Of a stretch of DNA of 37,278 bases, positions 10,207-32,777 are shown in pieces. The DNA comes from a bacterium (GTDB lineage: Bacteria; RBG-13-66-14; B26-G2; WVWN01). The notes beneath the pieces are model-generated. The model was given only the letters and a program-made list of their open reading frames with translations, made no database searches and was not told where the DNA came from. Each line of letters begins with the position of its first letter. Positions within the stretch are counted from its first letter, which is position 1. The stretch is taken from assembly GCA_036480675.1 (NCBI GenBank), contig JAZGGY010000102.1:1-37278 (forward strand), read 5' to 3'. The position numbers and the translations under genes were made by a program.

Positions 10207-12453
10207 TTAATCCTCTTCGCCCGGGCCGCGATAACCGCAGCTCTTCTTGGCGCAATACTTCCCGCGCTTCCCTTCAAGGAGGTACGGCGCGCCGCAGGCC
10301 GGGCATTCCTCATTTACCGGGACGGCGTTGGCGGTGAAGTCGCACTCCGGGTATTTCTCGCAGCCGTAAAAGCGGCGATTGCGCTTACCCCGCCGCTCCA
10401 CTACCTGGCCGTCGCACTTGGGACACTTGGCGTCGACCTTTTTGGTAAGCGGCCGGGTGTTTTTACACTCCGGGTAGTTGTCGCAAGCGAGGAACTCACC
10501 GTACCGACCGCGCTTTACTACCATCGCGCCGCCGCACTTCTCGCAAGTTTCGCCGGTGTCCTCGGCCTCGACCGCGACCGCCTTGCCCTCCTCGTCGCGC
10601 TCGAAGTTCATCGTCTGGCTGCAATCGGTATAATTCTCGCACCGCAAATACTTCCCGAACCTCCCCCACCGCACCTCCATCTTCCCGCCGCATTTGGGAC
10701 AATCTACGTCGGTGCGCTCCGCCGCTTCGTCGCGCACCGCGTCCATGACGTCGGCCGCCTGCGCCAGGTCGGCGGCGAACGGGCCGTAGAAGTCGGCCAG
10801 CACCGCGTCCCACTCCGCGCGGCCCTCTTCGACGGCGTCGAGCTGCGACTCCACCTTGGCCGTAAATTCCACGTCGAAGATGTCCGGGAAAGACGCCACG
10901 AGCAACGCGTTCACCAACTTGCCGAGCTCGGTGGCGTGGAACGCTCGCCGAACACGTTCGACGTACCTGCGGTCGATAATGGTCGCCACCGTGGGGGCGT
11001 ACGTGCTGGGGCGGCCTATGCCGTACTTCTCCAGCGCCTGGACCAGCGACGCGTCGTTGTAGCGCGGAGGCGGCTTCGTAAAATGCTGCTCCGGCGTGAC
11101 GTCGGCCAACGAGGCTTCGTCGCCCACCGCCAGCGAAGGCAGGAGCTCGCCGGCGCCGGTCTCACGCCGCGTAACCTCCATAAAACCCGGAAACTTGAGC
11201 GCCTGGGTCAGCGCGCGGAAGAGGTACCCGCCGCCCTCGAGCGTAGCGGTCGCGGTATCGAAGACGGCGTCTGCCATCTGCGACGCCACGAACGTGCGGT
11301 AGATGAGGTCGTATAGCTTGAACTGGTCGGCGGTGAGATACTCTTTTACCGCCTCGGGCTCTCGCGCCACGTCGGTGGGGCGAACGGCCTCGTGTGCCTC
11401 CTGAGCGCCGCGGCGGGAGCGATAGAAGCGCGGCTTAGCGGGTAAGTAATCGGAGCCGAACTGTTTTTCGATATGCTTCCGGCACGCGGCCGCCGCGGAC
11501 GACGCCACCCGCACCGAATCGGTCCGCATGTAGGTTATAAGGCCCACGCGGTCGCCGCCGCCGACGTCGACGCCCTCGTAAAGCACCTGGGCCAGCGCCA
11601 TGGTCTTGCGGCCGGTAAAGCCGAATTGCCTGGCCCCGGCTTGTTGCAGTTTGCTCGTAGTTAACGGCGGTACCGGCGAACGACGCTTCTCGCCGCGCTC
11701 GTACGCCGTGACGGTGAAGCGTTGCTTGAGTATCTTGTCGCGTTCGGCTTGCGCCTCGGCCTCGGTCGACAGCCGGCGCCGATATTTGACCAACCGCCCG
11801 GGCGCCATCAACTTCTCGCCGTCTATGGAGACGAGCGACGCGGCGAAGCGTTCGTCGGCCGCCGTCTCGAATTCGGCCCCCAGAGTCCAATATTCGTCGG
11901 CGACGAAGTTTTCGATTTCTTCTTCGCGCTCGCAGATAAGCCGCACGGCCACGGACTGGACGCGGCCGGCGGAAAGGCCGGTCGTAACCTTCTTCCACAA
12001 TATGGGGCTGACCTGGTACCCGACGAGGCGGTCCAGTATGCGGCGGGCCTGCTGGGCCGCGACGAGGCGGAGGTCCAGCTCGCGCGGTTCGGCCACCGCC
12101 GCCTTCACCGCCTCCGCCGTTATCTCGTTGAACGATACGCGCCGCGCTCGGTCGCCGTTCAACTGTTGCGAGAGATGGTACGCTATGGCTTCGCCCTCGC
12201 GGTCGGGGTCCGTAGCCAAATAGATTACGTCCGCGGTCTCGGCCGCCTTGGTAAGGGTTTTCAATATTTTCTTCTGCGCCGGCGTGGATTCGTACGTAGG
12301 TTCGAAGCCCTTCGACACGTCGACGCCGAGCGAAGACTTCGGGAGGTCCGCAACGTGGCCCTGGCAAGACTTTACGGCGTAACCCTTGCCGAGTATCTTG
12401 GCGATGGTTTTGACCTTTGCGGCCGATTCGACGATTATTAATTTTTTTCCCAT
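10207..12453 (-). CDS. topA: DNA topoisomerase I
   Basis: 748-aa ORF. It has an N-terminal Toprim domain (KKLIIVESAAKVKTIAKILG...GHVADLP...ATDPDREGEAIA), the catalytic region (ITYMRTDS) and four C-terminal CxxC...CxxC zinc ribbons. Confidence 0.97.
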   Translation of the reverse strand: MGKKLIIVESAAKVKTIAKILGKGYAVKSCQGHVADLPKSSLGVDVSKGFEPTYESTPAQKKILKTLTKAAETADVIYLATDPDREGEAIAYHLSQQLNGDRARRVSFNEITAEAVKAAVAEPRELDLRLVAAQQARRILDRLVGYQVSPILWKKVTTGLSAGRVQSVAVRLICEREEEIENFVADEYWTLGAEFETAADERFAASLVSIDGEKLMAPGRLVKYRRRLSTEAEAQAERDKILKQRFTVTAYERGEKRRSPVPPLTTSKLQQAGARQFGFTGRKTMALAQVLYEGVDVGGGDRVGLITYMRTDSVRVASSAAAACRKHIEKQFGSDYLPAKPRFYRSRRGAQEAHEAVRPTDVAREPEAVKEYLTADQFKLYDLIYRTFVASQMADAVFDTATATLEGGGYLFRALTQALKFPGFMEVTRRETGAGELLPSLAVGDEASLADVTPEQHFTKPPPRYNDASLVQALEKYGIGRPSTYAPTVATIIDRRYVERVRRAFHATELGKLVNALLVASFPDIFDVEFTAKVESQLDAVEEGRAEWDAVLADFYGPFAADLAQAADVMDAVRDEAAERTDVDCPKCGGKMEVRWGRFGKYLRCENYTDCSQTMNFERDEEGKAVAVEAEDTGETCEKCGGAMVVKRGRYGEFLACDNYPECKNTRPLTKKVDAKCPKCDGQVVERRGKRNRRFYGCEKYPECDFTANAVPVNEECPACGAPYLLEGKRGKYCAKKSCGYRGPGEED

Positions 12454-12463
12454 AAGGAATACG

Positions 12464-13582
12464 CTACATGTAGACGCGCCGGTAGTTATTACCCGGGAGC
12501 CTCTCGACCAGGCCGGCTATTTCGAGCGAGAGCAACGCGGCCGCGACTCGAGACGGGTCCCACCCGGCGCGGGCCGCGAGTTCGTCGGCCGGCATCGGCT
12601 CGCCGCCGACGCATTTTAAAAGTTCCTGCTCATCGGCGCCCAACGACGCCACGTCCACCGTCGGCCCCGCCGCCCGGCGCCCTCCCCCGCGCGAAAACTG
12701 CGGCGCGACCTCCTCCAAGATTTCTTCGGCCGAGCCGACCGGCTTGGCGCCGCCCGCGATAAGCCGCCGGCAGCCGTCGCTCGCCGGCGAAAAGATGCTG
12801 CCCGGCACCGCGAAGACCTCCCGGCCTTGCTCCGCGGCGTGGTAGCCGGTTATTAGGGCGCCGCTGCGCTCTCCCGCCTCGACGACCAGGACGCCGGTCG
12901 TCAGGCCGCTTATTATCCGGTTGCGGCGCGGGAAGTTCTGCGCTTCGGGGCGGGCCGACGGTGGAAACTCCGAAACGACGAGCCCTTTTTCGCATATTTC
13001 GCCGTACAAGTTTTTATTCTCGGGCGGATAGACGACGTCGGCGCCGCACCCGAGAACGGCGACCGTCACGCCGCCCGTCTTAAGCGCGGCCCGATGGGCG
13101 CAGGTATCTATGCCTCGTGCCATACCGCTCACGATGGCCACGCCGGCTTCGGCAAGCGATTCGCATATGAACGCCGTCGCGCGCTCGCCGTAGTCGGTAG
13201 GCCGCCGCGTGCCCACGGCCGCGATGGCGGGCGGCGCCAGCCGGCCTAACGAGCCCAGATAATAAAGCACGGGCGGCGGGTCGTATATGGCGGCGAGCGG
13301 CTCCGGATAATCGTCGTCGCCCCATATAAGGCACCCCAAGCTCAAGGCATCCGCTTGGGCCATCTCGTCCTCGACTTCCTTCCACCCGTCGAACGTGGCA
13401 AGCGCTCGCGCCCGTTCGTCGCCGACGCCCATAACCGCGGCGAGCTCGTCGAAGGTTTTCGTAAAAACCGCCGCGGGGTCGCCGAAGGTTTCCAGAAGGC
13501 GCCGGAAAAATACGCTTCCGATGCCCGGTACGCGGGCCAACGCCAACGTAGCCCGCACGCGCTCGCGCCGATCAGTCTCCAT
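12464..13582 (-). CDS. dprA: DNA processing protein DprA (Smf)
   Basis: 372-aa ORF with the Rossmann-like core GMARGIDTCAHRAALKTGGVTVAVLGCGADVVYPPENKNL and a C-terminal winged-helix-like tail. It sits immediately upstream of topA (10-nt gap), a widely conserved gene pair. Confidence 0.93.
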   Translation of the reverse strand: METDRRERVRATLALARVPGIGSVFFRRLLETFGDPAAVFTKTFDELAAVMGVGDERARALATFDGWKEVEDEMAQADALSLGCLIWGDDDYPEPLAAIYDPPPVLYYLGSLGRLAPPAIAAVGTRRPTDYGERATAFICESLAEAGVAIVSGMARGIDTCAHRAALKTGGVTVAVLGCGADVVYPPENKNLYGEICEKGLVVSEFPPSARPEAQNFPRRNRIISGLTTGVLVVEAGERSGALITGYHAAEQGREVFAVPGSIFSPASDGCRRLIAGGAKPVGSAEEILEEVAPQFSRGGGRRAAGPTVDVASLGADEQELLKCVGGEPMPADELAARAGWDPSRVAAALLSLEIAGLVERLPGNNYRRVYM

Positions 13583-13683
13583 TTAGGCCGGATTGTATTC
13601 GAAGCCGCCGGGGCTGTCAAGACAAAATTAACGAATCGTATCCGCTTGACGGCGTCGCCGCTGTATGTTATTCGTTAAAATTA

Positions 13684-14466
13684 ATGAATAGATTCGCCGT
13701 AACCTTGTCCGTATTCGCGGTCTTTGCGGCCGCCGTTCTCGCGCAAGAGGAGGAGACCGAAACCGAGCCCATACCTACCGTTCAGTATCTACCGGCCTAC
13801 GTGTTCCCCGCGGTCTACGTGTACGGCGGCGCGGCGTGGGGGCCGTCGTACGACGCCGCGCCGGATATCACCGGGAGGGCCGCCGCCATCGGCCTGAACG
13901 ACCCGCTCGGCGATATTGGAACGCTTTCCGCTATCGGCGTAACGTTCGACTTCTTCGTCGGCCCGTACGTTGCCGCCTCTCTCAGATTGGCGCACGAACA
14001 GGCTCGCCGGCGCAAGACGGCCTTGAAATACGACTACGGCACCTTTCCCAAAATCGCGTCCGTCGTAACGGAACCGGTTCGGGTCGAGGAACACCTCGCC
14101 TATAAGTTCCAAAACGTCGATTACAAAATCGCGCTTAAATACGTGGCCTTCCCCCACTGGCCGGTCACGCCGTACGCGTCCGCGGGCGTGGGCGGCAACC
14201 TGACGTCAATGGACATTGACGACCAAGTCTCGAATGCTATACTCCAAAAAGGCAAGGGCGGCGCCCTTTTGAAGACGGGTTGGTATCAACAGTTCTCTTT
14301 CGATTGGGCCCTCTACGCCGGCATCCAGGTGAACCTGGGCGACAACCTGTTCCTTATTACGGAATACACCTACGACCGCCAATTCCGCGAACACGAGGTC
14401 GCGGGCTACAAATACCGCACCGGCCTTCAAGGGTTTTACGCCGGCTGGGGATGGCGGTTCCTTTAG
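13684..14466 (+). CDS. predicted outer-membrane beta-barrel protein
   Basis: 260-aa ORF with a signal peptide (VFAVFAAAVLA/QEE). The sequence alternates aromatic and Gly-rich segments and ends YAGWGWRFL. No specific family recognised. Confidence 0.6.
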   Translation: MNRFAVTLSVFAVFAAAVLAQEEETETEPIPTVQYLPAYVFPAVYVYGGAAWGPSYDAAPDITGRAAAIGLNDPLGDIGTLSAIGVTFDFFVGPYVAASLRLAHEQARRRKTALKYDYGTFPKIASVVTEPVRVEEHLAYKFQNVDYKIALKYVAFPHWPVTPYASAGVGGNLTSMDIDDQVSNAILQKGKGGALLKTGWYQQFSFDWALYAGIQVNLGDNLFLITEYTYDRQFREHEVAGYKYRTGLQGFYAGWGWRFL

Positions 14467-19114: not shown

Positions 19115-20104
19115 ATGAGAAAATTAACGATAATAATTACCGCGATTGCGATAACGGCGGCCGTTCCGGCGTGGGCCGAAACGAAAGACGTCCCGAGATT
19201 CGTATGGCTGCTCATCGAGCCCGGCTCCCGGCCCGGCGGCCTGGGTAAAACATTTACCGGCCTCGCCGACGACGTCAACGCCTCGTACTACAACCCGGGC
19301 GGCTTGGCGCTGCTGGAGAAAAACGGCCTCTCCGTGATGCACGAGCCCCGCGGCACCGACCAACTGAAAGATATGTTTTACGACTACGTCGCGTTCTCTT
19401 ACGACACGGGTAGATTCGGTACGCTGTGCTTCGACGTAATATACAGCGACGCCGGCAAAAGCGACATTACCGACGACCAAAGCCGCGTTTTAGGCGTTTT
19501 ACATAGTTACGGCGCGGCGCCGTCTCTCTATTGGAGTTATCCTGTCCTGAAAGACCTCGGCGTCGGCGCCGGCCTGACGTACGTCTACGAACACCTTACG
19601 GACCTTCCCGGCGGCGTCGACAGTCAGCTATTGTTCAACGGCGGCGTACTTTATAAAACGCCCCTCAAGGGCCTTTCCGGCGGCCTGGCCTTCACCAACC
19701 TCGGCCCGAACAAGTCGGGCACCCGCGTTAACGAAGAGAAACAGGAGATCGAAGTAAGCTGGCCGCCGCCGCGTACGATGCGGCTGGGCCTGGCCTACAA
19801 AGTCTTCTCGAGCGACCTCAACGACCTCACCGTCGCCGCCGACGGCTCTAAGCTCTTAATGAACCTCGACGACCGCCTAAGCGAGGAGTTCGGCCAAGCG
19901 GTATATTCGGGCGGCGCCGAATACATGTATGCCAAGATGATCGCCGTACGGGCCGGTTACTACCGCGACCGGTGGGGCGAAATCGAAGGCTTAGCGTTGG
20001 GCTTCGGCTTCGCGTACAAAGGCCTCAGCTTCGACTACGCCCGCGTCCCGGAGGGCGAGGCCTTCGGCGACCGGCACCGCTTCGCCGTCGGGTACCTCTT
20101 TTAA
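19115..20104 (+). CDS. PorV/PorQ-family outer-membrane protein (T9SS shuttle-like)
   Basis: 329-aa ORF with a signal peptide (ITAAVPAWA/ET). The N-terminal motif LLIEPGSRPGGLGKTFTGLADDVNASYYNPGGLALL matches the pattern I associate with PorV/PorQ/UPF0164 barrels (ARAxGMGGAFxAxADDxxAxxxNPAGLA). The protein ends in a beta-signal-like FAVGYLF. Confidence 0.68.
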   Translation: MRKLTIIITAIAITAAVPAWAETKDVPRFVWLLIEPGSRPGGLGKTFTGLADDVNASYYNPGGLALLEKNGLSVMHEPRGTDQLKDMFYDYVAFSYDTGRFGTLCFDVIYSDAGKSDITDDQSRVLGVLHSYGAAPSLYWSYPVLKDLGVGAGLTYVYEHLTDLPGGVDSQLLFNGGVLYKTPLKGLSGGLAFTNLGPNKSGTRVNEEKQEIEVSWPPPRTMRLGLAYKVFSSDLNDLTVAADGSKLLMNLDDRLSEEFGQAVYSGGAEYMYAKMIAVRAGYYRDRWGEIEGLALGFGFAYKGLSFDYARVPEGEAFGDRHRFAVGYLF

Positions 20105-20119
20105 AGCGCGGAAATACGC

Positions 20120-21154
20120 GTGGCCCGCCCGAAGCGCATCTTCGAAAAGAGAAAAGCCGTCGTCACCGCAGCTGTGGCGGCGGCTTTAACGTCGCCGGCC
20201 GCGGCGGTGATAATCAGCGGCGGCGAACTCGCCACCGTACCCGAGGGCTTCAAGGCTGTCGCCGTCGTGGGCGAGGCCGGCCGCGGCGACGGCCAGTTCA
20301 ACGAACCTACGGCGGTCGCCTTTGACGGCGCCCGTCGCCTCTACGTCGTCGACAGCCGCAACGTACGGCTCGAGCGCTTCTTCTCCCAGGGCGACTTCGA
20401 CATGGCCTTCGGCCGCTTCGGGTGGAAGGGCGAGGGGCTCGTTTCGCCGCACGGCATCGCGGCCGACCAGGAACTTTATATATACGTAAGCGACCGCGAG
20501 CGCGGCCTGATCCACCAGTACGACATCTACAGCAAATATCTCAAATCGTACGGCCAGACGCAGAAGATAGCGACGTGGTTCGAACGGCCCGCCGGCCTCG
20601 CCGTCGACAAGCTGGGCAACCTCTGGGTCGCGGATACCGGTAACCACAAGGTCAAGCGCATCAACCTCCTGGGCGAAATCACGTTGGAGGTCGGTTACTA
20701 CGGCTCGGGACCGGGGAAACTCAACCTCCCCGCCGACGTCGCGGTAGACGAAAGCGGCGGCGTCGTCGTAGCCGACGCCGGGAACTCGCGGCTGCAGCGC
20801 TTCGACCGCTTCGGCAACCCCGTTGCCGTGATCGCCGGGAGCGGCGGCGAACAACTGCGCAATCCCTCCGGCGTTTGCCTCGACCGCTTCGGCAACATAT
20901 TCGTATCGGACACGGGAAACGACCGCGTCGTGGCGTTCGACGCCGACGGCCGGTACCTGTGCGAGTACGGGAAACTGGGCCGCGGTAAAAAGGACTTCAA
21001 CCACCCGGGAGGCCTTTGCTTCGGCGAGGACGGCAAATTATATGTAGCGGATACCTACAATAACGTAATAAAAATATTGGAAGTACAATACCGCCTCCCG
21101 GACCGCGTCGAGAAACCGCCGCGGTTCCCGGCGCCGGCGCCGAACGAAAGGTAA
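20120..21154 (+). CDS. NHL-repeat beta-propeller protein (secreted/periplasmic)
   Basis: 344-aa ORF with a GTG start and a hydrophobic N-terminus. NHL blades recur: RLYVVDSRNVRLERF, YIYVSDRERGLIHQY, LWVADTGNHKVKRINLLG, VVVADAGNSRLQRFDRFG, IFVSDTGNDRVVAFDADG, LYVADTYNNVIKIL. Confidence 0.85.
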   Translation: MARPKRIFEKRKAVVTAAVAAALTSPAAAVIISGGELATVPEGFKAVAVVGEAGRGDGQFNEPTAVAFDGARRLYVVDSRNVRLERFFSQGDFDMAFGRFGWKGEGLVSPHGIAADQELYIYVSDRERGLIHQYDIYSKYLKSYGQTQKIATWFERPAGLAVDKLGNLWVADTGNHKVKRINLLGEITLEVGYYGSGPGKLNLPADVAVDESGGVVVADAGNSRLQRFDRFGNPVAVIAGSGGEQLRNPSGVCLDRFGNIFVSDTGNDRVVAFDADGRYLCEYGKLGRGKKDFNHPGGLCFGEDGKLYVADTYNNVIKILEVQYRLPDRVEKPPRFPAPAPNER

Positions 21155-21222: not shown

Positions 21223-24200
21223 ATGGCAGGATATCCCCGAAGACGACTTCTGCTTACGACCGGCCTACTGGCGGCGGCCGCGTTGGCCGACTCGCTCGGC
21301 GCGGCCGAGGAACCGCGGTGGCACGAAACGCTCGCCGCGGCGCGGGAATCTTTCCGGATAATGGAGCTCGCAACCGGCGCCGATTACGAGTTGCCGCATA
21401 AGTTTCTCTTCGTCGGTTCCGAAACGGTGCGCGTCGGCGGCGACGTCTGGGAGAGGGGCCGCGACTACCGCCTCGACTACGACGCCGGGACCTTGACCGT
21501 CCTCGCGGCGCCGCCGTACGCCGGGCCGATGGTCGTCGAGTACGAGTACCTGCCGTTCCTGCAGGCCGAGGACTACCGCGCCGCGCTCGAGGGCGAGGAC
21601 GAGGCAGAGGCGTTGGAACGCCTCGAGGAGGCGGCGGCCGCGCCCTCGGAGCTGGACGTAACCGGCTCCAAAACCTTCACCGTCACGGCCGGGAACGCGG
21701 AGGGGACCGACTTCAACCAGTCCCTCCGCCTCTCCATCCGGGGAAACGTCGGCGACGTGAAGATTACCGGCGAGATCTCGGACCAAGACTTGCCGTTGGA
21801 GGAAGGGGGCGCCACCAAGGAAATCGCAGCCGTGGACAAAATATACGTCCGCGTGGAAGGCCGGCACCTGGCGGGGACCTTTGGCGACTACGACGCCGCG
21901 ATCAGCGGCCGGCGTTTCGCCGACTACCAACAACGCCTTACGGGCATCAAAGGCGAAGCCTTCTACCCCACCTGGGGTGCCGACGCCTACGGCGCCCGGG
22001 CCCTCGGCCGCTTCGCGTCCAACGAGTTCTACGGCGTCGACGGCATCCAGGGCCCGTACCAACTCTCCGCCCGCGACGATGACGACATTATCGTACTTCC
22101 GGGAACCGAAACCGTATGGTTGAACGGCTCGAAGCTTAAAGAGAACGAGAACAACGATTACGTCGTCGACTACGACCTCGCGACCATAACCTTTACCGTC
22201 CGCCGCCCCATCTCGGCCGAGGACCGCATCGTCGTCGACTTCCAATATACCACCGAAGAATACCAGCGCAACTTCTTCGGCGGAGAAGCCGAAGGACACT
22301 TCGCCGGCGGCGCCGTCAACGTGGCCGCGCTGTACCTGCACGAGGAGGACAACCGCGCCCGCGCCTTCTTCGGCCTCGACGATTATTACCGCAAATTGCT
22401 GGAGGGAGCCGGCGACGACCAGGAGCGCGCGCGGGTGGTCGCGCTGGACGAAAACGGCGAGATAATTTACGAGTACGTCGGCGAAGGCCAGGGGGAATAC
22501 ACGCGCCAATGGGACCCGGTGGAAGGTAAATACGTATACGTCTACGTCGGCCCGGGCAACGGCGACTACATGCCGAGGATGATCCTGCTTCCCTTCCCGA
22601 AGCGGCAAAGCCTCTTCGACGTAAACGCCGTCATCGCGCCGGCGCGCATTATCACCGTCGAGGCCGAGGGCGCGACCAGCGACTTCGACGCCAATACTTT
22701 TTCGACGGTAAGTGACCGCGACAACGGCGGCCTGGCCGGCTCCGCCGCGGCCACCGTCCGGCTGGACGCGCTCGAGCCCCTCGAACGCGTGGGCAAGCTC
22801 GAAGTCCGGCACGTCGTCGAGCGGAGAGACACCCGCTTCCGGAACCTGGGCCGCGAGGACGGCGTCGTGTTCCTGCAGCGATGGGACCTCGACGACGAGG
22901 TCGCGGGCCTTGCCCACCCGCCGGGCTACAAGCTTTACGAGACGACGGTTACCGAGCGGCCCGTCCCGTCCCTCACGGCATCCGGAACGTACGGCGCTAT
23001 CCGCCAACAGTACGTCGGCCTCTCGGCAAACGGTTATTCGGGACAACGGGGCAAAAGGGCCGCGGCCTCGCTGAGTTGGGAACCCGAACGCTGGCCGCAC
23101 GTCGCGTACGACTTCAACCACGTGCGCCGTCACGGCCCGCGGTATACGGGAGCGTTCGAGACCGACGACGAATCGGTGGCCAAAAGCGCATTCACCGACG
23201 ACGAGAATACGCGGCGCGAACAGAGCGGCGAGGTCTCCTATTCCGTTTGGCGGCTCAGCCCGTACGTCCGCGTCTACGACAAGAAGCGACGCGCCGACTA
23301 CGAAATAGACGGCGCCCCCGACGAGGGGACGCTCGAGCAAGAGCTAGAGGTCGGGACGGGCGTACGACCCGCGGCGGGATGGAACGTCCGGTTCGGCCAC
23401 ACCGCGGGCCGCGGCGAATTGGTCGAAGACCAAGCTTACGTCCCCCACTACCGCAAGAACGAAGAGCACGTCGCTACCACGTACGACGCCCCCGGTTTAA
23501 TCGATCTCAGCGCCGAGTACACCAAAATAATAAAGGATTTCGCCCCCGCGGACGTGGCCGACGTCGACTCCGACCTCTCGCTGCTCGAGTTTTACTACAC
23601 GCCGCTGGAGCGCGCGCTGGCGCTGAGAACGCGCTACGAGCTCAACAGCATCCAAGAACTCGAACGCGAAGAGATATTCGAGGTCGCACGCGACGGCGAC
23701 GGCGACTACCGCCGCGAAGTCGATCCCAAGAACCCGAACCGCTATGTCTACATCTACGACCCCGACGACCCGGAAGCGATTTATATAAAGACGTACAGAT
23801 ATACCGGCCGGGCGTACCGCGCCCTCGAACCGGACCTCACCGTCAGCCTCGCCGTGCTCCCCTACCGCTACAACGACGTGCGCGGCCGAGACGCCGAGCG
23901 CAACCCGTGGCTGGACGCCGCGGCCGCGGACCTTTACGTCCACGCTCGGAACAGCTCCACGTCGCCGCGGCGCTTAGCCATCGCCACCCTCCAAGACCTC
24001 CTGGCCGCGGACGCCCTCGATAGCAGCCTGGAACAACGTTACACCCTCACCATATTACCGGTCAACCGGCGGCTCACCGGCTGGGCGCGCTACTCGGTCA
24101 AGGACGACCTCGACCGAACCGTCGCTTCGCGCCAACGTAGACGGTGGCGGACGTCGCGCTACGGCGAAGTCGTCGCCGAGCCGGTACCGCGGCTGACGGT

Positions 24201-24672
24201 CCAGGCCGACGTCGACCGCATCCGGGAATGGGAATCGGTAACGGAGGAGAACGTGCCCCGCCCCGAGAACACGAAAGCCCTGGAGATGATATACGGCCTG
24301 GAACCCACCTACACGGTTACGTCCCGGCTCGACCTCGCGGCCCGCGGCGAGGTCTCGCGACGGCACGAGGAGTACAACGGCGCTCCCACCCACTTCAAGG
24401 GCACGAGGGTGAAGCCGGAGGCCACCTACCGCCTGACGGAATCCGGCGTCGCGAACGCGTGGTACGACCGGACGGAGTACGACGTTTCGGGCTACAGCGG
24501 GTCCGAGACGGTGCTGCTGCGCATCCCGGGAGTAACGCACAAGTGGGAGGCCAGCGTAAATAAGGGCGTAGGCCGATACGTTACGCTGATCTTCACGTAC
24601 GACGGCGAGAAAAAACCCGACGTGGGAGAGACGCGGCACCGGGGCCGAATAGACTTAAACATATACTTCTAA
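21223..24672 (+). CDS. large predicted outer-membrane beta-barrel protein, possibly SprA/Sov-like (T9SS translocon family) at about half the canonical length
   Basis: 1149-aa ORF with a signal peptide (RRRLLLTTGLLAAAALA) and Tyr/Asp/Arg-rich amphipathic beta-strand composition. The C-terminal beta-signal is GRIDLNIYF. Two copies of a ~50-aa module occur (aa 61-109 and 289-342: G-S/T-E-T-V ... DY-x-h-DYD-x-x-T-h-T ... VV-D/E-F/Y-x-Y). Stretches such as DFNQSLRLSIRGNVGDVKITGEISDQD and RLTGIKGEAF resemble my recollection of the Flavobacterium SprA N-terminal region. That homology is from memory and untested. Confidence 0.55.
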   Translation: MAGYPRRRLLLTTGLLAAAALADSLGAAEEPRWHETLAAARESFRIMELATGADYELPHKFLFVGSETVRVGGDVWERGRDYRLDYDAGTLTVLAAPPYAGPMVVEYEYLPFLQAEDYRAALEGEDEAEALERLEEAAAAPSELDVTGSKTFTVTAGNAEGTDFNQSLRLSIRGNVGDVKITGEISDQDLPLEEGGATKEIAAVDKIYVRVEGRHLAGTFGDYDAAISGRRFADYQQRLTGIKGEAFYPTWGADAYGARALGRFASNEFYGVDGIQGPYQLSARDDDDIIVLPGTETVWLNGSKLKENENNDYVVDYDLATITFTVRRPISAEDRIVVDFQYTTEEYQRNFFGGEAEGHFAGGAVNVAALYLHEEDNRARAFFGLDDYYRKLLEGAGDDQERARVVALDENGEIIYEYVGEGQGEYTRQWDPVEGKYVYVYVGPGNGDYMPRMILLPFPKRQSLFDVNAVIAPARIITVEAEGATSDFDANTFSTVSDRDNGGLAGSAAATVRLDALEPLERVGKLEVRHVVERRDTRFRNLGREDGVVFLQRWDLDDEVAGLAHPPGYKLYETTVTERPVPSLTASGTYGAIRQQYVGLSANGYSGQRGKRAAASLSWEPERWPHVAYDFNHVRRHGPRYTGAFETDDESVAKSAFTDDENTRREQSGEVSYSVWRLSPYVRVYDKKRRADYEIDGAPDEGTLEQELEVGTGVRPAAGWNVRFGHTAGRGELVEDQAYVPHYRKNEEHVATTYDAPGLIDLSAEYTKIIKDFAPADVADVDSDLSLLEFYYTPLERALALRTRYELNSIQELEREEIFEVARDGDGDYRREVDPKNPNRYVYIYDPDDPEAIYIKTYRYTGRAYRALEPDLTVSLAVLPYRYNDVRGRDAERNPWLDAAAADLYVHARNSSTSPRRLAIATLQDLLAADALDSSLEQRYTLTILPVNRRLTGWARYSVKDDLDRTVASRQRRRWRTSRYGEVVAEPVPRLTVQADVDRIREWESVTEENVPRPENTKALEMIYGLEPTYTVTSRLDLAARGEVSRRHEEYNGAPTHFKGTRVKPEATYRLTESGVANAWYDRTEYDVSGYSGSETVLLRIPGVTHKWEASVNKGVGRYVTLIFTYDGEKKPDVGETRHRGRIDLNIYF

Positions 24673-26537
24673 TGCTAAAGAGTTGGGCCATACTAGTCGT
24701 ACTCGCTCCCGCCGCGGCGGCCACGCCGGCGGCCGCCGAGGTGGCGGTCGAGGGCAACGTCGCATTCGGCGACGCCGAAATCGAGGCCGCGGCGTATCGG
24801 GACGGCGCCGTCGACGCCGGCGCCGTGGAGCGGCTCTATCTACGCGCCGGGTACCTGGACGCGCGCGTCGAGCTGACCGTCGAAGAAGGCGTCCCGCCGA
24901 CGCTCGCGATAACGGAGGGAGCGCGGTACCGCGTCGCCGCGCTCGACGTGGACAACGATTCGCCGCTCAGCCGCGACGAAGTAGCAGCGTTCATCCCGTT
25001 CGGCCCGGGCGACGCGCCGTCGCCGCCCGACCTCCGGGAGGGTTTAATCGCGCTGTTAGCCAAACTGGCGGATCGGGGATATCTGCGCGCCGAAGCGGAA
25101 TACGCCGTAACCGACGCCGGCGCGGCGCGGGTGGACGTCGCCGTGGCGGTGCGCGCGGGCGAAAGGTACGCCGCCGGCGAGATCCACCTCGTCGGCGTTC
25201 GCCGCCGAGACGAGGAGGCCATACGCGAAAACCTCGAAACCCGGCCCGGCAAGCCGCTGCACGAGCGGGCCCTCGCGCGCGACCTCCTCACCATCATCGA
25301 CTACTATCGCGAGCGCGGCTATCCCACGGCCTCCGCCCGTCCCCGCGCTTTCGAGCTCGCCGAGCGCTACAAAGAGATTGACTTCGCCGTAATAGTCGAG
25401 CCGGGCGACAAAGTAACCGTAACGGCCATCGACGTCGTCGGAAACCGCCGCACCCGCGACGGCGTCATCCGGCGCGAAATTTTAACCGTCCCCGGCGAAC
25501 CGTACGACATCGAAAGACTGCGCAAGAGCGCGCGCCGGATATATAACCTCAAATACTTCGAGGCCGAGCCCGACGTCGAGCTGGTCGACGCCGAGGCGGG
25601 CCGGCTTCGCGTAACGGTGGTGGAGCGGCCGACGTACCGCGTTACCGGCGCTTTGGCGTACGAGCCGCGGCAAGGCGAGACCGCCGCGGCCGTGATAGGC
25701 GAAATGGACGCGCGCCTCGCCAACCTCTTCGGCACCGGCCGGGAGCTCGACGCCCGCTACCGCCGCCTGGCCGTCGAATCGACCGACGCCGCGGCGGCGT
25801 ACTACGAGCCGTGGATAGGCGGCGTCGACCTCTTCGCGCAGCCGAGCGGCCTTTACAAAGAGCGGGTAACGTACCGCAAGGCGACCGGCGAGCTCGCGCT
25901 CGGCACCCATCCCCTCGTGGACTTGACGGTGGCCGCCGGCGGCGGCTTCGACCGGGTGTGGACGGAAAACGCGAGCCGGAAGTACAAAGTCTTCACCTGG
26001 GCGACGTACGACAGCCGGGATTACTTCGACAACCCGCGGCGGGGTTGGCAAGCGTTCGGCCGCGTGGAGCTCGGCGTCAAGGAATACCTGGCCGACGGCT
26101 TCCGGGAGCGGGTGCCGCGGCTGAAGCTCGACGCGTGGCGCTTTTGGCCCACGACTCGCAACCAGGTCCTCGCGGCGCGCGGCCGCGCCGAGGGCTTCGT
26201 CTCGCAGCGGACGAGTCTGGACGAAGTTTTCCCGCTGGGCGGGTACGCCGACCTCCGCGGCTTCAAAGAGGAGCAGTTCCTAACGGACCGCTACGTTCTC
26301 GCGACCGTCGAGTATCGTTTCTTGACCGGCCGCGGCAGCAGGCTGTTCCTCTTCGTCGACTCGGCCTATCGGCACCTCAAAACCGAAAAGACGTTCGACG
26401 AGGGTTTCAACGTGGGCTACGGGGCCGGCTTCCGGGCGGCGACGGCCGTCGGAACGTACGGCGTAGACTACGGCCTGGCCGCCGGCGATAACCCCCAAGA
26501 GGGTAAAATCCACGTCTCCATAACGCAGGAGTTTTAA
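24672..26537 (+). CDS. Omp85-family protein (BamA/TamA-like, short POTRA array)
   Basis: 621-aa ORF whose ATG overlaps the upstream stop (TAATG at 24670..24674). It has a signal peptide and POTRA-like units (IHLVGVRRRDEEAIRENLETRPGKPLHERALARDLLTIIDYYRERGYPTA; IDVVGNRRTRDGVIRREILTVPGEPYDIERLRKSARRIYNLKYF). The C-terminal surface-antigen barrel ends GKIHVSITQEF. At this length there is room for about 3 POTRA domains rather than the 5 of canonical BamA. Confidence 0.87.
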   Translation: MLKSWAILVVLAPAAAATPAAAEVAVEGNVAFGDAEIEAAAYRDGAVDAGAVERLYLRAGYLDARVELTVEEGVPPTLAITEGARYRVAALDVDNDSPLSRDEVAAFIPFGPGDAPSPPDLREGLIALLAKLADRGYLRAEAEYAVTDAGAARVDVAVAVRAGERYAAGEIHLVGVRRRDEEAIRENLETRPGKPLHERALARDLLTIIDYYRERGYPTASARPRAFELAERYKEIDFAVIVEPGDKVTVTAIDVVGNRRTRDGVIRREILTVPGEPYDIERLRKSARRIYNLKYFEAEPDVELVDAEAGRLRVTVVERPTYRVTGALAYEPRQGETAAAVIGEMDARLANLFGTGRELDARYRRLAVESTDAAAAYYEPWIGGVDLFAQPSGLYKERVTYRKATGELALGTHPLVDLTVAAGGGFDRVWTENASRKYKVFTWATYDSRDYFDNPRRGWQAFGRVELGVKEYLADGFRERVPRLKLDAWRFWPTTRNQVLAARGRAEGFVSQRTSLDEVFPLGGYADLRGFKEEQFLTDRYVLATVEYRFLTGRGSRLFLFVDSAYRHLKTEKTFDEGFNVGYGAGFRAATAVGTYGVDYGLAAGDNPQEGKIHVSITQEF

Positions 26538-29757: not shown

Positions 29758-31128
29758 CTACGCCGCGTTGGACGCGGCGTCCGGGCAACAGAAAACTCTC
29801 TCGTACTTGACCGACAGCGGGCACCCGGCGCCGCATATTTCTAAATCCGGGCACTCCCGACATCGGGCGGGCGCGTACTCCCGGTCGCGTATCTCGCGAG
29901 CCAATTCGTTGTTGTAGATCGTGTCCCAGTCGTCGGCGAGTATATTCCCCATAGGTTGGTAAAACGACTGGCACGGTATGACGTCGCCGTTGGGCTCGAC
30001 GCACATGTTGTACTTGGCCGCGGTGCACTGTTTGACGCCCAGGTCCATCGTCAGCGGGTTGAAGCGGCAGTACTGCGTCGGCGTATACCACATAAAAGTC
30101 ATGTCGTTGGCGGCGCAGGCCGCGGTGAAGCGGCTGAGGATGGGCCCGAGCGCGCCCTCCGGAATGCCGACGTCAACGTCGCGCGCGCTGCCGGAGTTAA
30201 TAATGCCGTTGGCCGCCACGTGCTCGACGTCCAGCGTCGCCAAAAACGCCACCAACTCCTCCACGTCGTCGACGTTTTCGGTGGTGAGCGTCGTGTTGGT
30301 CAACAAGTATACCGGGCTTGCGACGGCGTTCTCGATGCCGGCGACGGTTTCGTTGAAGGCGCCGTCGGCGCCCACCATCTTGTCGTGGGTTTCGGGTACG
30401 GAGGAGTGAATGGTTATTTGGACGTGGTCGAGGCCCGCCGCGGACAGCGCGTCCATATATTCCGCGTCCTTCAACTTGCGGCCGTTGGTCAACAGGCCGG
30501 TGACAACGCCCAACTCCTCGGCGTATTCGACCAATTCGACCAGGTCCGGGTGCTGCGTCGGCTCGCCGCCGGTGAATACCACGTGCGGAATGCCGAGCCC
30601 CCAAACCTTGGCGATGACGCGCTTGAGGTCCTCGGTGCTGAGCGTCTCGCCCGCGCGCGCGGCCTCGTTGTAGCAGTGGGCGCAGGCGTTGTCGCACCCG
30701 TACGTGAGCGCGAGGTCCATCCGGTAGGGCACGTCGACGTCGATGGAAAAGGGGTCGACGCGCTCGGCGCCCAGGTACGATATGGGACACCGCTCGTCGC
30801 CGCGCGCCATCATTTCTATCGTCTCGCGCAAGCGGCGGAGGTCTTCCGCCAGCTCCTTTTTGCCCACGCGGTAGCGCTTGGCCATCGTCTTGACGATGCG
30901 GTCGTCGGGCCACTCCTCGATTACGTAGCGCGCCATCTCGGCGCCGGTCTGGTTGAGGTGCAGGATGCGAGCGGCATTTATCATCAATATGCCGTCGCCC
31001 CCCGGGTTCAGGCGGAGGTGGAGGCGAACATGGAGTTCCGCGTCGTCGCGCCGGAGGTGGTATATCCCCGCCTCGAGCGGGACCTGCTTCGCCAGGAACT
31101 TGTCGTATATCGTCTTTCCGATACCCAT
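29758..31128 (-). CDS. radical SAM/SPASM-domain peptide maturase with N-terminal PqqD-like (RRE) domain
   Basis: The ORF track gives 29758..31245. I place the start at ATG 31126..31128 (MGIGKTIYDKF...) because the extension is an Arg-rich out-of-frame reading of the upstream gene's Cys-Ala repeat. The rSAM site is LTYGCDNACAHCYN. The SPASM motif is Cx2Cx5Cx3C (CRECPDLEICGAGC), with upstream Cys residues (QCTAAKYNMCVEPNGDVIPC). The N-terminal ~100 aa are PqqD-like (ILHLNQTGAEMARYVIEEWPDDRIVKTMAKRYRVGKKELAEDLRRLRETI). Confidence 0.9.
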   Translation of the reverse strand: MGIGKTIYDKFLAKQVPLEAGIYHLRRDDAELHVRLHLRLNPGGDGILMINAARILHLNQTGAEMARYVIEEWPDDRIVKTMAKRYRVGKKELAEDLRRLRETIEMMARGDERCPISYLGAERVDPFSIDVDVPYRMDLALTYGCDNACAHCYNEAARAGETLSTEDLKRVIAKVWGLGIPHVVFTGGEPTQHPDLVELVEYAEELGVVTGLLTNGRKLKDAEYMDALSAAGLDHVQITIHSSVPETHDKMVGADGAFNETVAGIENAVASPVYLLTNTTLTTENVDDVEELVAFLATLDVEHVAANGIINSGSARDVDVGIPEGALGPILSRFTAACAANDMTFMWYTPTQYCRFNPLTMDLGVKQCTAAKYNMCVEPNGDVIPCQSFYQPMGNILADDWDTIYNNELAREIRDREYAPARCRECPDLEICGAGCPLSVKYERVFCCPDAASNAA

Positions 31129-31163
31129 ATATAATCTACGACGGGATTTGAGGCCGACCGCGC

Positions 31164-32777
31164 CTAACGGCCGCCGCCGGCGCAGGCGCAGGCGCACCCG
31201 GCGCAAGCGCATGCGCAAGCGCAGCTGCTGCCGCCGCCGCTCCAACCGCCGGACGAACGCGCAGGCGGCGGGTTAGTGGTCGCGGTAACTTTGCCGGTGA
31301 ACGATTCCACCTTCGACACCACGCCGTTCGCGATGCCCTCCACGCGCGTCACGACGGCGTTGGCGAAGCTGGCGCCGGGGAGCGTGGGCATATCGAGCGA
31401 AACGCCCTTGGGCCCGACCCCGGCCGCGGGGGCGACGCGTCCCCACCATACGGGCCGCGGTACGTCGTATCCCACGAAGACGGTGCGGGCGTGCCCCTCG
31501 AAGTCGTCGTCCAGCATCGTCCACTCCAGGCCGTTCGTAAACTCCTCGACCTTGACGTCGGGGGTACCGGCCTCCTCCACCAACCGCCAGGCGGTCTTCA
31601 CTATCTTGCGGTAGTATTCGACGGTCTCGCGGTGGGAGAAGCCCTTCATCTTCTTCTCCACGGCCTTGATCAGCGACACCAACATGTCCTGGAGCTTCTT
31701 CTCGCCCAGGGTCCCGTCTTTGTCGAGCGCGGCGACCAACTCTTTCTCGTACGGCCTTAGGCCGTTCTCTTTAAAAGGTAGCTTCTCGAGCTTCAGCGGC
31801 TCCTGGGAGACTATGGAAAGCGCGCCCTTCTTAATCAAGCCGAAGAGGATCATGGTCAGGATTACGTTCAACGGCCGTTCCATCAGGATCGCGGCTTCAG
31901 GGGCGGTAAGGCCGCGCTTAATCCCCACGCCCTCAACCTTGGCCTTGGGCGACAGGTACCTCATGCGCCGACGCCGTTTATTGATTATGCCAAAGACGGC
32001 GATAAGTACGAAAATAGTAATCGGTATCAAGCATCCGCAGAATTGCGCCGCAAAGCCCACGAGGCCTGCGAAGAAGTCGCCGATCCACCCGAACTGCGGC
32101 GGCGACCGCACCTCCGCCACCGCGTTCCGCGGGAACGATATGCCGAAGTAATACTGCTCCGACGGCGACGCTTGCTGCCAATCCCAGACGTAATAGACGC
32201 GGCCATCCCTAACGAACATCTGCGTCGGCTCGCCGCCCTCGTCCTCGTGCCAGCGCGTTTGCTCCCCCGTTACGCCCGGCGGGAAGACGAAGACCATCGT
32301 GAGGTGGGTCGTGCCGGTGGTGAAATCGGAGCCGAACCAGGTGGGGCTGAAGACGGCCGACGCGTACGTCTCGTCGGCCGAGTCCTCGAAGACCATATGG
32401 TAATTACGGCCGTTAACGTGGAGCGTAGCCGCGTCGCCGGATCCAATTTCGTAACCGGAGAGCGGTATCTCGACGCCGACGTCGATGTACTCCGAGGGCC
32501 TTATGGTATACAGCGGATGGCCGTCGACGTCGGCGGTAATGGAGTCGAGGTCGTAATCGTTCGACGGAAAGCCCACGTCGACGATATCTATGGGGTCGCC
32601 GGCGGGGGTATTGCGAAAGGTTATCTTGTAATCGACGTCGAACGAAGAATCCTGGTTGACGGTTACCGTCACTACCTCGCGCGGGACCTCAAAGTAGTAA
32701 TCCTGCGCCGCGACGGGCCACGGCGTTACCGCCGCCGCCAAATATAAAACTATTGTCGCGCCACGTTTAAGACCCAT
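31164..32777 (-). CDS. DUF2207-like membrane protein with C-terminal poly(Cys-Ala) tail
   Basis: 537-aa ORF with a signal peptide (LYLAAAVTPWPVAAQ). The ~220-aa N-terminal domain opens with a DUF2207-like pattern (YYFEVPREVVTVTVNQDSSFDVDYKITF). A long hydrophobic span (FFAGLVGFAAQFCGCLIPITIFVLIAVFGII) is followed by KRRRRMRY and a soluble C-terminal half. It ends ...PPPARSSGGWSGGGSSCACACACAGCACACAGGGR*. The family call is from memory of its architecture. Confidence 0.8.
   Translation of the reverse strand: MGLKRGATIVLYLAAAVTPWPVAAQDYYFEVPREVVTVTVNQDSSFDVDYKITFRNTPAGDPIDIVDVGFPSNDYDLDSITADVDGHPLYTIRPSEYIDVGVEIPLSGYEIGSGDAATLHVNGRNYHMVFEDSADETYASAVFSPTWFGSDFTTGTTHLTMVFVFPPGVTGEQTRWHEDEGGEPTQMFVRDGRVYYVWDWQQASPSEQYYFGISFPRNAVAEVRSPPQFGWIGDFFAGLVGFAAQFCGCLIPITIFVLIAVFGIINKRRRRMRYLSPKAKVEGVGIKRGLTAPEAAILMERPLNVILTMILFGLIKKGALSIVSQEPLKLEKLPFKENGLRPYEKELVAALDKDGTLGEKKLQDMLVSLIKAVEKKMKGFSHRETVEYYRKIVKTAWRLVEEAGTPDVKVEEFTNGLEWTMLDDDFEGHARTVFVGYDVPRPVWWGRVAPAAGVGPKGVSLDMPTLPGASFANAVVTRVEGIANGVVSKVESFTGKVTATTNPPPARSSGGWSGGGSSCACACACAGCACACAGGGR
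31179..31223 (-). repeat. coding hexanucleotide repeat (7 x NGCGCA on + strand) encoding (Cys-Ala)4-Gly-(Cys-Ala)3
   Basis: The + strand reads GGCGCA GGCGCA GGCGCA ccc GGCGCA AGCGCA TGCGCA AGCGCA. On the coding strand every Cys is TGC, while the Ala codons vary (GCT, GCA, GCT, GCC x4). Confidence 0.9.

Follow-up and report, generated by a model that had tools for sequence, protein, structure and literature searches.

SprA (also named Sov; TIGR04189 and PF14349; PDB entries 6H3I, 6H3J, 8GL6, and 8GL8) is the outer membrane translocon of the T9SS (type IX secretion system). It is a β-barrel of 36 strands with a pore about 7 nm wide; to our knowledge, it is the largest known single-chain outer membrane barrel, and it has been regarded as unique. 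Like LptD, a 26-strand barrel that is paired with LptE, SprA has a lumen that needs a separately encoded soluble occluder, which in this case is Plug. Several Omp85 systems (BamA-BamB, TamA-TamB, and TpsB-TpsA) are based on another arrangement, in which a POTRA-bearing Omp85 protein adjoins and is co-inherited with one specific partner. In E. coli, BamB is a β-propeller.

Here, we describe a gene (the target gene) in a window of 37,278 nucleotides, which was the whole stretch of DNA analyzed. The target protein is similar to SprA in that it is predicted to be a giant single-chain barrel with a comparable strand number, and, as judged from profile-profile alignments, it shares homologous N-terminal strands that bear the SprA_N signature, followed by a 'GSETV..nG..l..g.DY.IDY' module, homologous strands, and an A.S...N(T) motif. 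Both proteins occur only in T9SS-bearing members of the FCB group, and in the source phylum, the target gene is clustered with a PorV-family gene. In contrast to SprA, which is 1,900 to 2,600 aa in length, members of the target family are about half as long (1,150 aa); all of the predicted extracellular connections of the target total about 350 aa, whereas the SprA cap exceeds 150 kDa. In addition, the target carries an N-terminally duplicated module, has a C-terminal half with no detectable sequence homology to SprA, always shares its genome with a true SprA, and has Omp85 and NHL partners of its own, whereas SprA has none. The target also lacks the N-terminal ~170 aa of SprA, which bind SkpA in F. 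johnsoniae (PMC10994853).

The locus can be compared to the other systems as well. By analogy with LptD-LptE and SprA-Plug, an NHL propeller encoded in the target cluster is a candidate occluder of the barrel lumen, but none of LptD, LptE, and Plug is related in sequence to the cluster proteins, and Lpt genes are absent from the cluster. As in the Omp85 systems, the target adjoins and is co-inherited with a POTRA-bearing Omp85 protein, and the cluster includes a β-propeller, as the BAM complex includes BamB. However, the partner of this Omp85 protein is a barrel of about 38 predicted strands rather than an exoprotein with a TPS domain or a protein resembling TamB, and the housekeeping BamA is encoded by a separate gene. 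The features of the locus are listed in Table 1.

Table 1. Genes and protein features of the target locus (positions are those of the window)
Feature	Position	Strand	Description
PorV/PorQ-family outer membrane protein	19115..20104	+	14-strand type, 329 aa; heads the cluster
Secreted NHL-repeat protein	20120..21154	+	Six-bladed β-propeller, 344 aa; PF01436, 5 repeats, E = 2e-41
Target gene	21223..24672	+	Single open frame, 1149 aa; predicted cap-less SprA-like giant outer membrane β-barrel, unnamed family
Probable Sec signal peptide	21223..21288	+	aa 1-22, MAGYPRRRLLLTTGLLAAAALA, followed by D; read by eye
Module 1	21403..21549	+	aa 61-109; small β-module preceding the first barrel strand
SprA_N-like block	21646..22077	+	aa 142-285; first ~8 predicted barrel strands; bears the SprA N-terminal signature
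Module 2	22087..22248	+	aa 289-342; highly conserved β-module, 'VLAGTE.VW.nG..m.RGenNDY.IDY..g.ITFT'
Third SprA-homologous block	22093..22887	+	About aa 291-555; module 2, subsequent strands, and motif
C-terminal barrel	22900..24669	+	aa 560-1149; about 24 strands (DSSP of model)
Omp85-family paralogue	24672..26537	+	621 aa, with POTRA domains; POTRA and Omp85 Pfam matches

Predicted fold of the target protein

Independent AlphaFold models of the target (pLDDT 81.9, pTM 0.70) and of a second family member that was about 27% identical to it (pLDDT 84.4, pTM 0.71) were compared to PDB structures via Foldseek. SprA was the top PDB match for both models. Specifically, the best four matches of the target model and the best three matches of the second model were SprA chains, with E values that ranged from 6e-13 to 6e-9 across the two. 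The TM-scores were low (0.21 to 0.26), and the lead of SprA over generic barrels (LptD, MtrB, and TonB-dependent receptors) was only 2 to 5 orders of magnitude.

DSSP analysis of the target model (pLDDT 82) yielded 36 to 40 strands, with a best count of 38 and with long and short connections in alternation. The C terminus was a β-signal ('...IDLNIYF') in which F1149 was invariant in the family, and the pLDDT fell below 50 at aa 1-37. The target gene product is predicted to be a Sec-exported outer membrane β-barrel of about 38 strands. A previous sequence-only reading of this DNA had suggested a possible half-size SprA; in terms of the barrel, that suggestion was not supported, as the predicted strand number was about 38, compared to 36 in SprA. 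The target protein is short because most of the extracellular cap and the inserts of SprA are missing.

A standard 22-strand TonB-dependent receptor, which had been named as the competing fold, was excluded: the Plug and TonB_dep_Rec families were unmatched in Pfam and NCBIfam, about 38 strands were predicted, and TonB-dependent receptors ranked below SprA in both fold searches. LptD/OstA was also rejected as a candidate, as there was no family match in Pfam or NCBIfam and, in the fold search with the second model, LptD matched less well than SprA (E = 6e-8).

Sequence relationship to SprA

The sequence-only reading had pointed to a resemblance to SprA. When we compared profiles with hhalign, the resemblance was confirmed for the N-terminal ~450 aa of the target, in three blocks with probabilities of 92 to 98%, but not for the C-terminal ~600 aa. 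The block at aa 55-112, which included module 1, matched SprA aa 612-690 (97% probability, E = 7e-12). The SprA_N-like block matched SprA aa 174-328 (93 to 96% probability, E = 5e-9 to 4e-7), and the third block matched SprA aa 633-843 (97 to 98% probability, E = 1e-12 to 3e-11). Two of the three blocks were collinear with SprA. The two motifs that had been cited as SprA-like, DFNQSLRLSIRGNVGDVKITGEISDQD (aa 163-189) and RLTGIKGEAF (aa 238-247), indeed aligned onto the conserved N-terminal signature of SprA, and the 'AE.A.S..D.NtFS...D.DN.G' motif of the third block corresponded to 'GE.A.S.PNPNT...IDDFEG' in SprA.

In the C-terminal ~600 aa, hhalign revealed no significant sequence homology to SprA. 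A single collinear match between the two C termini was nonsignificant, with an E value of 6e-4 when profiles of 26 and 22 sequences were used and of about 0.005 to 0.012 when deeper profiles (170 versus 98 sequences) were used. Similarly, no counterparts of SprA regions ~329-632 and ~843-1340 were found in the target via hhalign.

The target matched TIGR04189 with 26.2 bits (E = 1e-6) at aa 291-384 only and did not reach the equivalog cutoff of 200 bits. Weak matches to this model were observed in 16 of 26 family members, the best of which had an E value of 1.4e-10; one Bacteroidota member had no match. HMMER detected PF14349 (SprA_N) in none of the 26 members, and a Pfam scan of the target and these members produced no family assignment. 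Against PDB chains, neither sequence nor HMM searches matched SprA, which was reached solely through profile-profile and fold comparison. Among the 10,876 ORFs of the target genome, the family HMM matched only the target itself and SprA, and the SprA HMM matched only SprA and the target. These profile comparisons indicate that the target family is distantly paralogous to SprA/Sov, the translocon of the T9SS. As judged from the alignments, it appears to have kept the N-terminal strands of SprA that bear the SprA_N signature, along with the 'GSETV...DY.IDY' β-module (which is present twice here) and the subsequent strands.

The two ~50-aa modules had been placed exactly by the sequence-only reading, and their proposed relatedness was well beyond chance. 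In BLASTP, modules 1 and 2 were 33% identical across 49 aa (E = 2e-6). Their local alignment score was 63, compared to 21.3 ± 4.1 for shuffled sequences (z = 10), and 0 of 5,000 shuffles reached 63. Module 2 was also the best match to module 1 within the whole target protein. Both modules were conserved among the 26 family members, module 2 far more strongly than module 1. In the model, module 1 precedes the first barrel strand, so it is probably periplasmic or within the lumen; module 2 sits in a 76-aa connection that is predicted to be extracellular from the strand assignment. The module also matched families of phage proteins from the distal tail and the tail tube (NF052337, TIGR02217, and DUF2460), and a few of the 26 members matched DUF2460 through it in the Pfam scan.

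Distribution of the family and its partner genes

The target family comprised 2,591 clusters at an E value of ≤1e-30. Family members were uniformly about 1,150 aa (1,100 to 1,250 aa), whereas the SprA proteins of the same genomes were 1,900 to 2,750 aa. All of the Bacteroidota members were labelled "hypothetical protein" in the source records, and no mention of the family was found in literature searches on short SprA-like proteins, on PorV2, on sets of NHL, Omp85, and SprA proteins, or on the T9SS of Zixibacteria. Thus, the target family is large, unannotated, and of constant length.

The family was present in 25 of 25 genomes of the source phylum, all of which also carried SprA, as did four of four distant family-bearing genomes. 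Among 301 sampled Bacteroidota genomes, 194 carried the family and all 194 carried SprA; in raw counts, which ignore kinship, none of the 64 Bacteroidota genomes that lacked SprA had a family member. Conversely, 43 of the 237 SprA-bearing Bacteroidota genomes lacked the family, which indicates that the family is not needed for the T9SS as such.

The target genome itself encoded a canonical SprA of 1942 aa on another contig; this protein was above the family cutoff, and its relatives bore PF14349 and SprA annotations. The genome also contained a PorU-like gene and 40 proteins with T9SS sorting domains. A search for GldM/PorM produced no match in the target genome, and the control genomes were silent too. 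The sequence-only reading had suggested that the target would be a minimal T9SS translocon. This suggestion had to be abandoned, as canonical SprA coexisted with the family in the target genome and in 223 of 223 family-bearing genomes. The target protein is not the T9SS pore of the cell.

The stop codon of the target gene overlaps the start codon of the Omp85 gene (TAATG), and the synteny of the two genes held across phyla. The Omp85 paralogue scored below the BamA, TamA, and TamL cutoffs, and it was rejected as the housekeeping BamA because the true BamA was found elsewhere, on contig C328 (500 bits). In Bacteroidota, the paralogue was detected in 165 of 194 genomes with the family versus 0 of 107 genomes without it (raw counts, kinship ignored), and the two co-occurred even where their genes were unlinked. 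Hence, the target and its dedicated Omp85 paralogue form a conserved pair.

The NHL protein matched PDB NHL propellers (E = 2e-44); neither a lipobox nor a T9SS C-terminal sorting domain was found in it, and a role as a Plug homologue was rejected because there was no sequence match to the Plug chain of SprA. In several phyla, an NHL gene immediately preceded the family gene; this arrangement was seen in the source phylum, in Marinimicrobia, and at loci L022, L024, and L035. The PorV-family protein matched NF033709 (PorV_fam) with 164 bits (cutoff, 90 bits) and was below the PorV and PorQ equivalog cutoffs. Its sole PDB relative was F. johnsoniae PorV (6h3i_F, E = 1.2e-9), which led us to reject it as a BamG/FadL-type BAM subunit. 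The PorV-family gene was syntenic at all close loci and duplicated at two of them (L008 and L012), but it was absent upstream of distant family members, so the linkage is confined to the source phylum. In the Bacteroidota loci, no T9SS gene was found among the neighbors of the family gene, and loci L027 to L034 had no conserved neighbors other than lineage-specific ones.

Possible roles of the barrel

The results as a whole are best explained, and in our judgment probably explained, by a T9SS-associated auxiliary outer membrane channel formed by the cap-less SprA paralogue and its Omp85 partner. The complex would depend on or serve the T9SS, and the Omp85 protein would either insert the giant barrel or stay bound to it. 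A barrel of about 38 strands with no cap would have to be occluded by something else; candidate gates of its periplasmic mouth or lumen are the NHL propeller and the N-terminal module, by analogy with Plug in SprA and LptE in LptD. The PorV-like protein, where present, may dock laterally as a carrier.

The family and its Omp85 partner suggest that there is a second, hitherto unrecognized outer membrane machine linked to type IX secretion. A broader version of this idea is plausible, and we put it forward tentatively: a machine that consists of the cap-less SprA paralogue (with a pore about as wide as that of SprA), the dedicated Omp85 protein, and often a gating NHL propeller might provide a second export or insertion route beside the T9SS in most FCB-group bacteria. 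If so, the cargo could be a class of surface proteins or parts of the T9SS itself, and about 80% of the Bacteroidota that have a T9SS would possess the machine, among them probably gliding species that are amenable to genetics.

The existence of a second, much leaner SprA-type barrel family, with thousands of clusters and a distribution that is universal in some phyla and covers most T9SS-bearing Bacteroidota, is of interest in several respects. Since so populous a family consists of "hypothetical proteins," the list of outer membrane components linked to type IX secretion is still incomplete. In addition, the family offers a natural test of what in SprA is needed to form and gate a pore with a similar number of strands; its outcome appears to be that the N-terminal strands and the β-module are retained and that the cap is dispensable. 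Finally, the pairing with a dedicated Omp85 protein has implications for the membrane insertion of giant barrels.

The Omp85 partner, which is conserved, POTRA bearing, and distinct from BamA, could also be viewed as part of a specialized outer membrane protein assembly machine instead of a secretion channel. The Omp85 protein would then be a BamA/TamA-like insertase, the NHL propeller would be the equivalent of BamB (a β-propeller in E. coli), and the barrel would be a scaffold or cofactor in the assembly of FCB-type barrels of very large size, for instance SprA. The strict nesting of the family within SprA-bearing genomes is consistent with this view, but the 43 SprA-bearing genomes without the family indicate that SprA can be assembled without it. 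The Bacteroidota BAM does recruit additional outer membrane barrels such as the FadL-like BamG (PMC12611786); however, the PorV-family neighbor matched PorV in the PDB, not BamG or FadL. The BAM and TAM accessory genes (BamD and TamB) were absent from the cluster, and a 38-strand barrel as a cofactor would be unprecedented, as we know of no insertase that has one. For these reasons, we regard an assembly machine as unlikely.

A more doubtful proposal is that the likeness to SprA is superficial and that the target, as a giant porin or uptake barrel of a generic kind, shares no more than a mobile ~50-aa β-module with SprA and has a function unrelated to type IX secretion. The matches of the module to phage tail families fit such a proposal, but a 130-aa SprA_N block and about 200 aa past module 2 also aligned with SprA, in SprA order. 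The failure of PF14349 to match and of the HMM profile to reach SprA among PDB sequences is set against within-genome HMM matches that were reciprocal and exclusive. Likewise, the C-terminal barrel has no significant SprA homology and the TM-scores were low, yet SprA was the top fold match for two members with only about 27% identity. In one Bacteroidota locus, the family gene came before exbB-exbD; however, the family was absent from all 64 SprA-less genomes.

The auxiliary channel thus remains our preferred reading, and the idea that the target is a minimal, half-size translocon that replaces SprA, which could draw on SprA as the closest known relative and on the PorV-family gene two genes upstream, is already refuted and highly improbable, given a barrel that is not half-size, a canonical SprA on another contig of the same genome, and the coexistence of the family with SprA in 25 of 25 genomes of the source phylum, 4 of 4 distant genomes, and 194 of 194 Bacteroidota genomes.

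Sequence relation of the barrel to SprA

The analysis showed that the target was a SprA-derived, cap-less protein predicted to form a giant barrel, with an obligatory Omp85 partner, and confined to bacteria with type IX secretion (T9SS). The two repeated modules noticed in the sequence-only reading lay exactly where that reading had placed them (see table), and their relatedness was borne out: 49 aa aligned at 33% identity (E = 2e-6), the local score was 63 versus 21.3 ± 4.1 for shuffled sequences (5000 shuffles, none as high; z = 10), and the best partner of module 1 within the whole protein was module 2. Both modules were conserved in the family, with module 2 far above module 1. The N-terminus carried a segment that, judged by eye, resembled a signal peptide, and the C-terminus ended in IDLNIYF, with the last Phe invariant across 26 relatives.

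Coordinates of the barrel, its cluster, its modules, and its SprA-related blocks
Feature	Window (nt)	Strand	Target (aa)	SprA (aa)	Remarks
PorV-family gene	19115-20104				first of cluster
NHL propeller gene	20120-21154				second of cluster
Target barrel gene	21223-24672	+			one open frame, 1149 aa
Omp85 with POTRA domains	24672-26537				directly 3' of barrel; its ATG overlaps the barrel's TAA
Module 1			61-109		
Module 2			289-342		
SprA block 1			55-112	~612-690	probability 92-97%, E down to 7e-12
SprA block 2			142-285	174-328	probability 93-96%, E down to 5e-9
SprA block 3			291-~510/555	633-~790/843	probability 97.5-97.8%, E 1e-12

A Pfam scan of the target returned zero matches, and an NCBIfam scan returned one weak match, to TIGR04189 (SprA; 26 bits versus a cut-off of 200, aa 291-384). 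SprA was not reached among PDB sequences, either by the target protein or by the family HMM. The weak SprA signal was nonetheless genuine: TIGR04189 was matched individually by 16 of 26 family members (best, 1.4e-10), and BLASTP aligned both modules to aa 613-666 of the SprA encoded in the same genome (44% identity). When the family profile was set against one from 22 aligned SprA sequences, 183 columns matched at 97.3% probability (E = 2.8e-11), and three blocks were resolved when sub-regions were compared again using deeper profiles (170 and 98 sequences). Block 2 was the SprA N-terminal signature region, and the motifs noted earlier as SprA-like fell on its conserved pattern. The C-terminal ~600 aa and the SprA C-terminus were collinear, but the match was non-significant (E = 6e-4 with the first profiles and ~0.005-0.012 with the deeper ones). 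The proposed SprA homology held for the three blocks and was not significant in sequence for the C-terminal part. Among 10,876 ORFs of the genome, the family HMM matched only the target and SprA (1.6e-8), and the SprA HMM matched only SprA and the target (1.7e-17).

Phage tail families also matched the module at target aa 308-352 (nt ~22144-22278) and in relatives, namely, the tail tube family NF052337 (E = 7e-5) and the distal tail protein family TIGR02217; DUF2460 was matched in 8 of 26 members. Because of these matches, the small β-fold of the module seems to be common to SprA-type barrels and phage tails.

Predicted fold and the canonical T9SS of the source genome

An AlphaFold2 model of the target on the family alignment (mean pLDDT, 81.9; pTM, 0.70) had SprA chains as its four best PDB matches (8gl8, 8gl6, 6h3i, and 6h3j; E = 5.7e-13 to 2.3e-9), with MtrB and TonB-dependent receptors ranking after them, from 6e-8. 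A second model, built independently for a Bacteroidota protein of the family that shares ~27% identity with the target (pLDDT, 84.4; pTM, 0.71), likewise had SprA chains as its top three matches (1e-10 to 6e-9), followed by LptD, BtuB, and SusC. Since the TM-scores were low (0.21-0.26), the models put SprA at the head of the matches without showing a global superposition.

DSSP assigned 36-40 long strands past residue 140 of the target model (best count, 38; mean length, 14.8 aa), and strand connections alternated between long (352 aa summed) and short (93 aa summed), as in outer-membrane barrels, where the outer loops are long and the periplasmic turns short. Connections predicted to be extracellular held module 2 and a 79-aa insert, and module 1 preceded the first strand. 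The protein had been proposed as a possible half-size SprA, which this strand count contradicts: with ~38 predicted strands versus 36 in SprA, the two barrels would be similar in width, and the target is short because it is without the SprA cap, an extracellular polypeptide of >150 kDa (PMC12611786).

The source genome was a 2.56-Mb MAG (86% complete) congeneric with 'Ca. Coatesbacteria bin961', and its close relatives carried the label Zixibacteria. A canonical SprA, complete at 1942 aa, was encoded on another of its contigs; it scored above the TIGR04189 cut-off, and its relatives bore PF14349 and SprA names. Also present were 40 proteins with a T9SS C-terminal sorting domain, a PorU-like gene, and at least six PorV-family paralogues. 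Searching for GldM/PorM gave no match in this genome or in the control genomes. This coexistence ruled out the target as the organism's T9SS pore, and the idea of a minimal translocon replacing SprA was refuted.

The PorV/PorQ paralogues scoring above cut-off were located on contigs C152, C160, C38, C301, and C251 and in the window. The PorU-like gene (C301:1777-5264, minus strand) was broken into two parts in different frames, of 1031 and 442 aa, which may reflect a frameshift or assembly error, and adjoined a PorV-family paralogue, with which it probably forms the canonical porU-porV pair. Nucleotides 2081-4711 (plus strand) of the window, 17 kb upstream of the cluster, encoded a T9SS substrate of 876 aa, which bore the C-terminal sorting domain of the system (TIGR04183, 44 bits) and partly resembled the PorU/C25-type region.

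Omp85 pairing, distribution, and proposed role

The gene order of the cluster was kept within the phylum down to 43% identity. Distant members in other phyla (24-26% identity) retained NHL-barrel-Omp85 and had lost the PorV-family gene; one lineage of the Bacteroidota sample had NHL-barrel-(6 kb)-Omp85, and Ignavibacteria-type and Bacteroidia-type loci had the barrel gene alone. The cluster Omp85 was not the housekeeping BamA, which was found on contig C328 at 500 bits, and it scored under the cut-offs for both TamA and TamL.

For distribution, 301 genomes were sampled evenly from the phylum holding Melioribacteraceae, Sphingobacteriales, and Chitinophagales, which we took to be GTDB Bacteroidota. 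A profile built from barrel-linked Omp85s (presence threshold, E≤1e-40) detected the paralogue in 165 genomes, and the barrel was present in all 165; where the paralogue was absent, the barrel was present in 29 genomes and absent from 107 (Fisher p = 6e-55). This co-occurrence extended to genomes in which the two genes lay megabases apart. The barrel and the Omp85 paralogue are therefore a conserved functional pair. As far as our literature search found, no counterpart to a giant barrel paired with a dedicated Omp85 has been described.

In the window's phylum, the family occurred in 25 of 25 genomes, with essentially one copy in each, and all 25 encoded a SprA of ~1,900-2,000 aa. Four distant carriers (Melioribacteraceae, Marinimicrobia, and one other lineage) also encoded a long SprA. 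In the Bacteroidota sample, 194 genomes had the family and 237 had SprA: both were present in 194, SprA alone in 43, neither in 64, and the family alone in none (Fisher p = 7e-37, uncorrected for phylogeny). Thus, the family is nested strictly inside T9SS-bearing genomes and is dispensable for having a T9SS.

The target most likely functions as an auxiliary T9SS-associated channel. The Omp85 would insert the barrel or stay attached to it. With ~38 strands and no more than ~350 aa on the outside, the pore could not stay open; the candidates to occlude or gate it are therefore the N-terminal module and, in loci that encode one, the secreted NHL propeller, in the manner of Plug for SprA and LptE for LptD. 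The window NHL protein was a six-bladed propeller of the standard kind. It carried a signal peptide, lacked both a lipobox and a T9SS sorting domain, and had no sequence relation to the SprA Plug. In the window's phylum, the PorV-like barrel, whose sole PDB relative was F. johnsoniae PorV (1.2e-9), may serve as a docking carrier. The main rival, a machine specialised in assembling very large barrels, would account for the Omp85 and the propeller, but the 43 SprA-bearing genomes without the family argue against it. A generic barrel unrelated to SprA is unlikely because of the collinearity of the blocks and the nested phyletic distribution.

SprA/Sov was the closest known protein, but the target fell outside SprA on score, length, cap, and role; a new, SprA-related family is the better description. 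Word-indexed searching turned up 44 relatives, of which nearly all were 1,125-1,222 aa long (the few shorter ones were partial sequences). Exhaustive profile searching across 1.84 billion representatives yielded 2,591 clusters at E≤1e-30; among these, the 150 best were almost all 1,100-1,250 aa. Every member, including those from Sphingobacteriales/Chitinophagales, was annotated at source as 'hypothetical protein' with no Pfam domain, and a literature search found no paper on the family.

Minor observations at family loci

In the closed MAG of Ca. Coatesbacteria bin961 (CP070633), the barrel gene was in two pieces ~1 Mb apart (residues ~10-353 at 1.57 Mb and 841-1140 at 0.598 Mb), reflecting either rearrangement or misassembly. 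Single in-frame stops (TAG and TAA) interrupted two otherwise full-length Bacteroidota matches (G137:C1:1509297-1512785 and G241:C1:2708239-2711700), which could be pseudogenes or sequencing errors.

Two relatives, L008 and L012, had a tandem duplication of the cluster-linked PorV-family copy. In one distant lineage (L022, 10796-11818), a PIN-domain gene accompanied by two small ORFs, an arrangement like that of a toxin-antitoxin cassette, lay between barrel and Omp85, and a second Omp85, with DUF5686, followed. In a single Bacteroidota genome (L030, 5816-7979, minus strand), the barrel gene was 260 nt upstream of exbB-exbD on the same strand. Another Bacteroidota locus (L029) had, convergent to the barrel gene, a 691-aa PD40 propeller + OmpA protein (11898-13973, minus strand) with an architecture like that of the T9SS lipoprotein PorE; it was absent from the other loci examined. 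Downstream of the window Omp85 were genes for a prepilin peptidase and then MiaB, and nucleotides 29758-31245 (minus strand) encoded a radical SAM/SPASM enzyme, likely a peptide-modifying maturase, whose N-terminal domain was PqqD-like.
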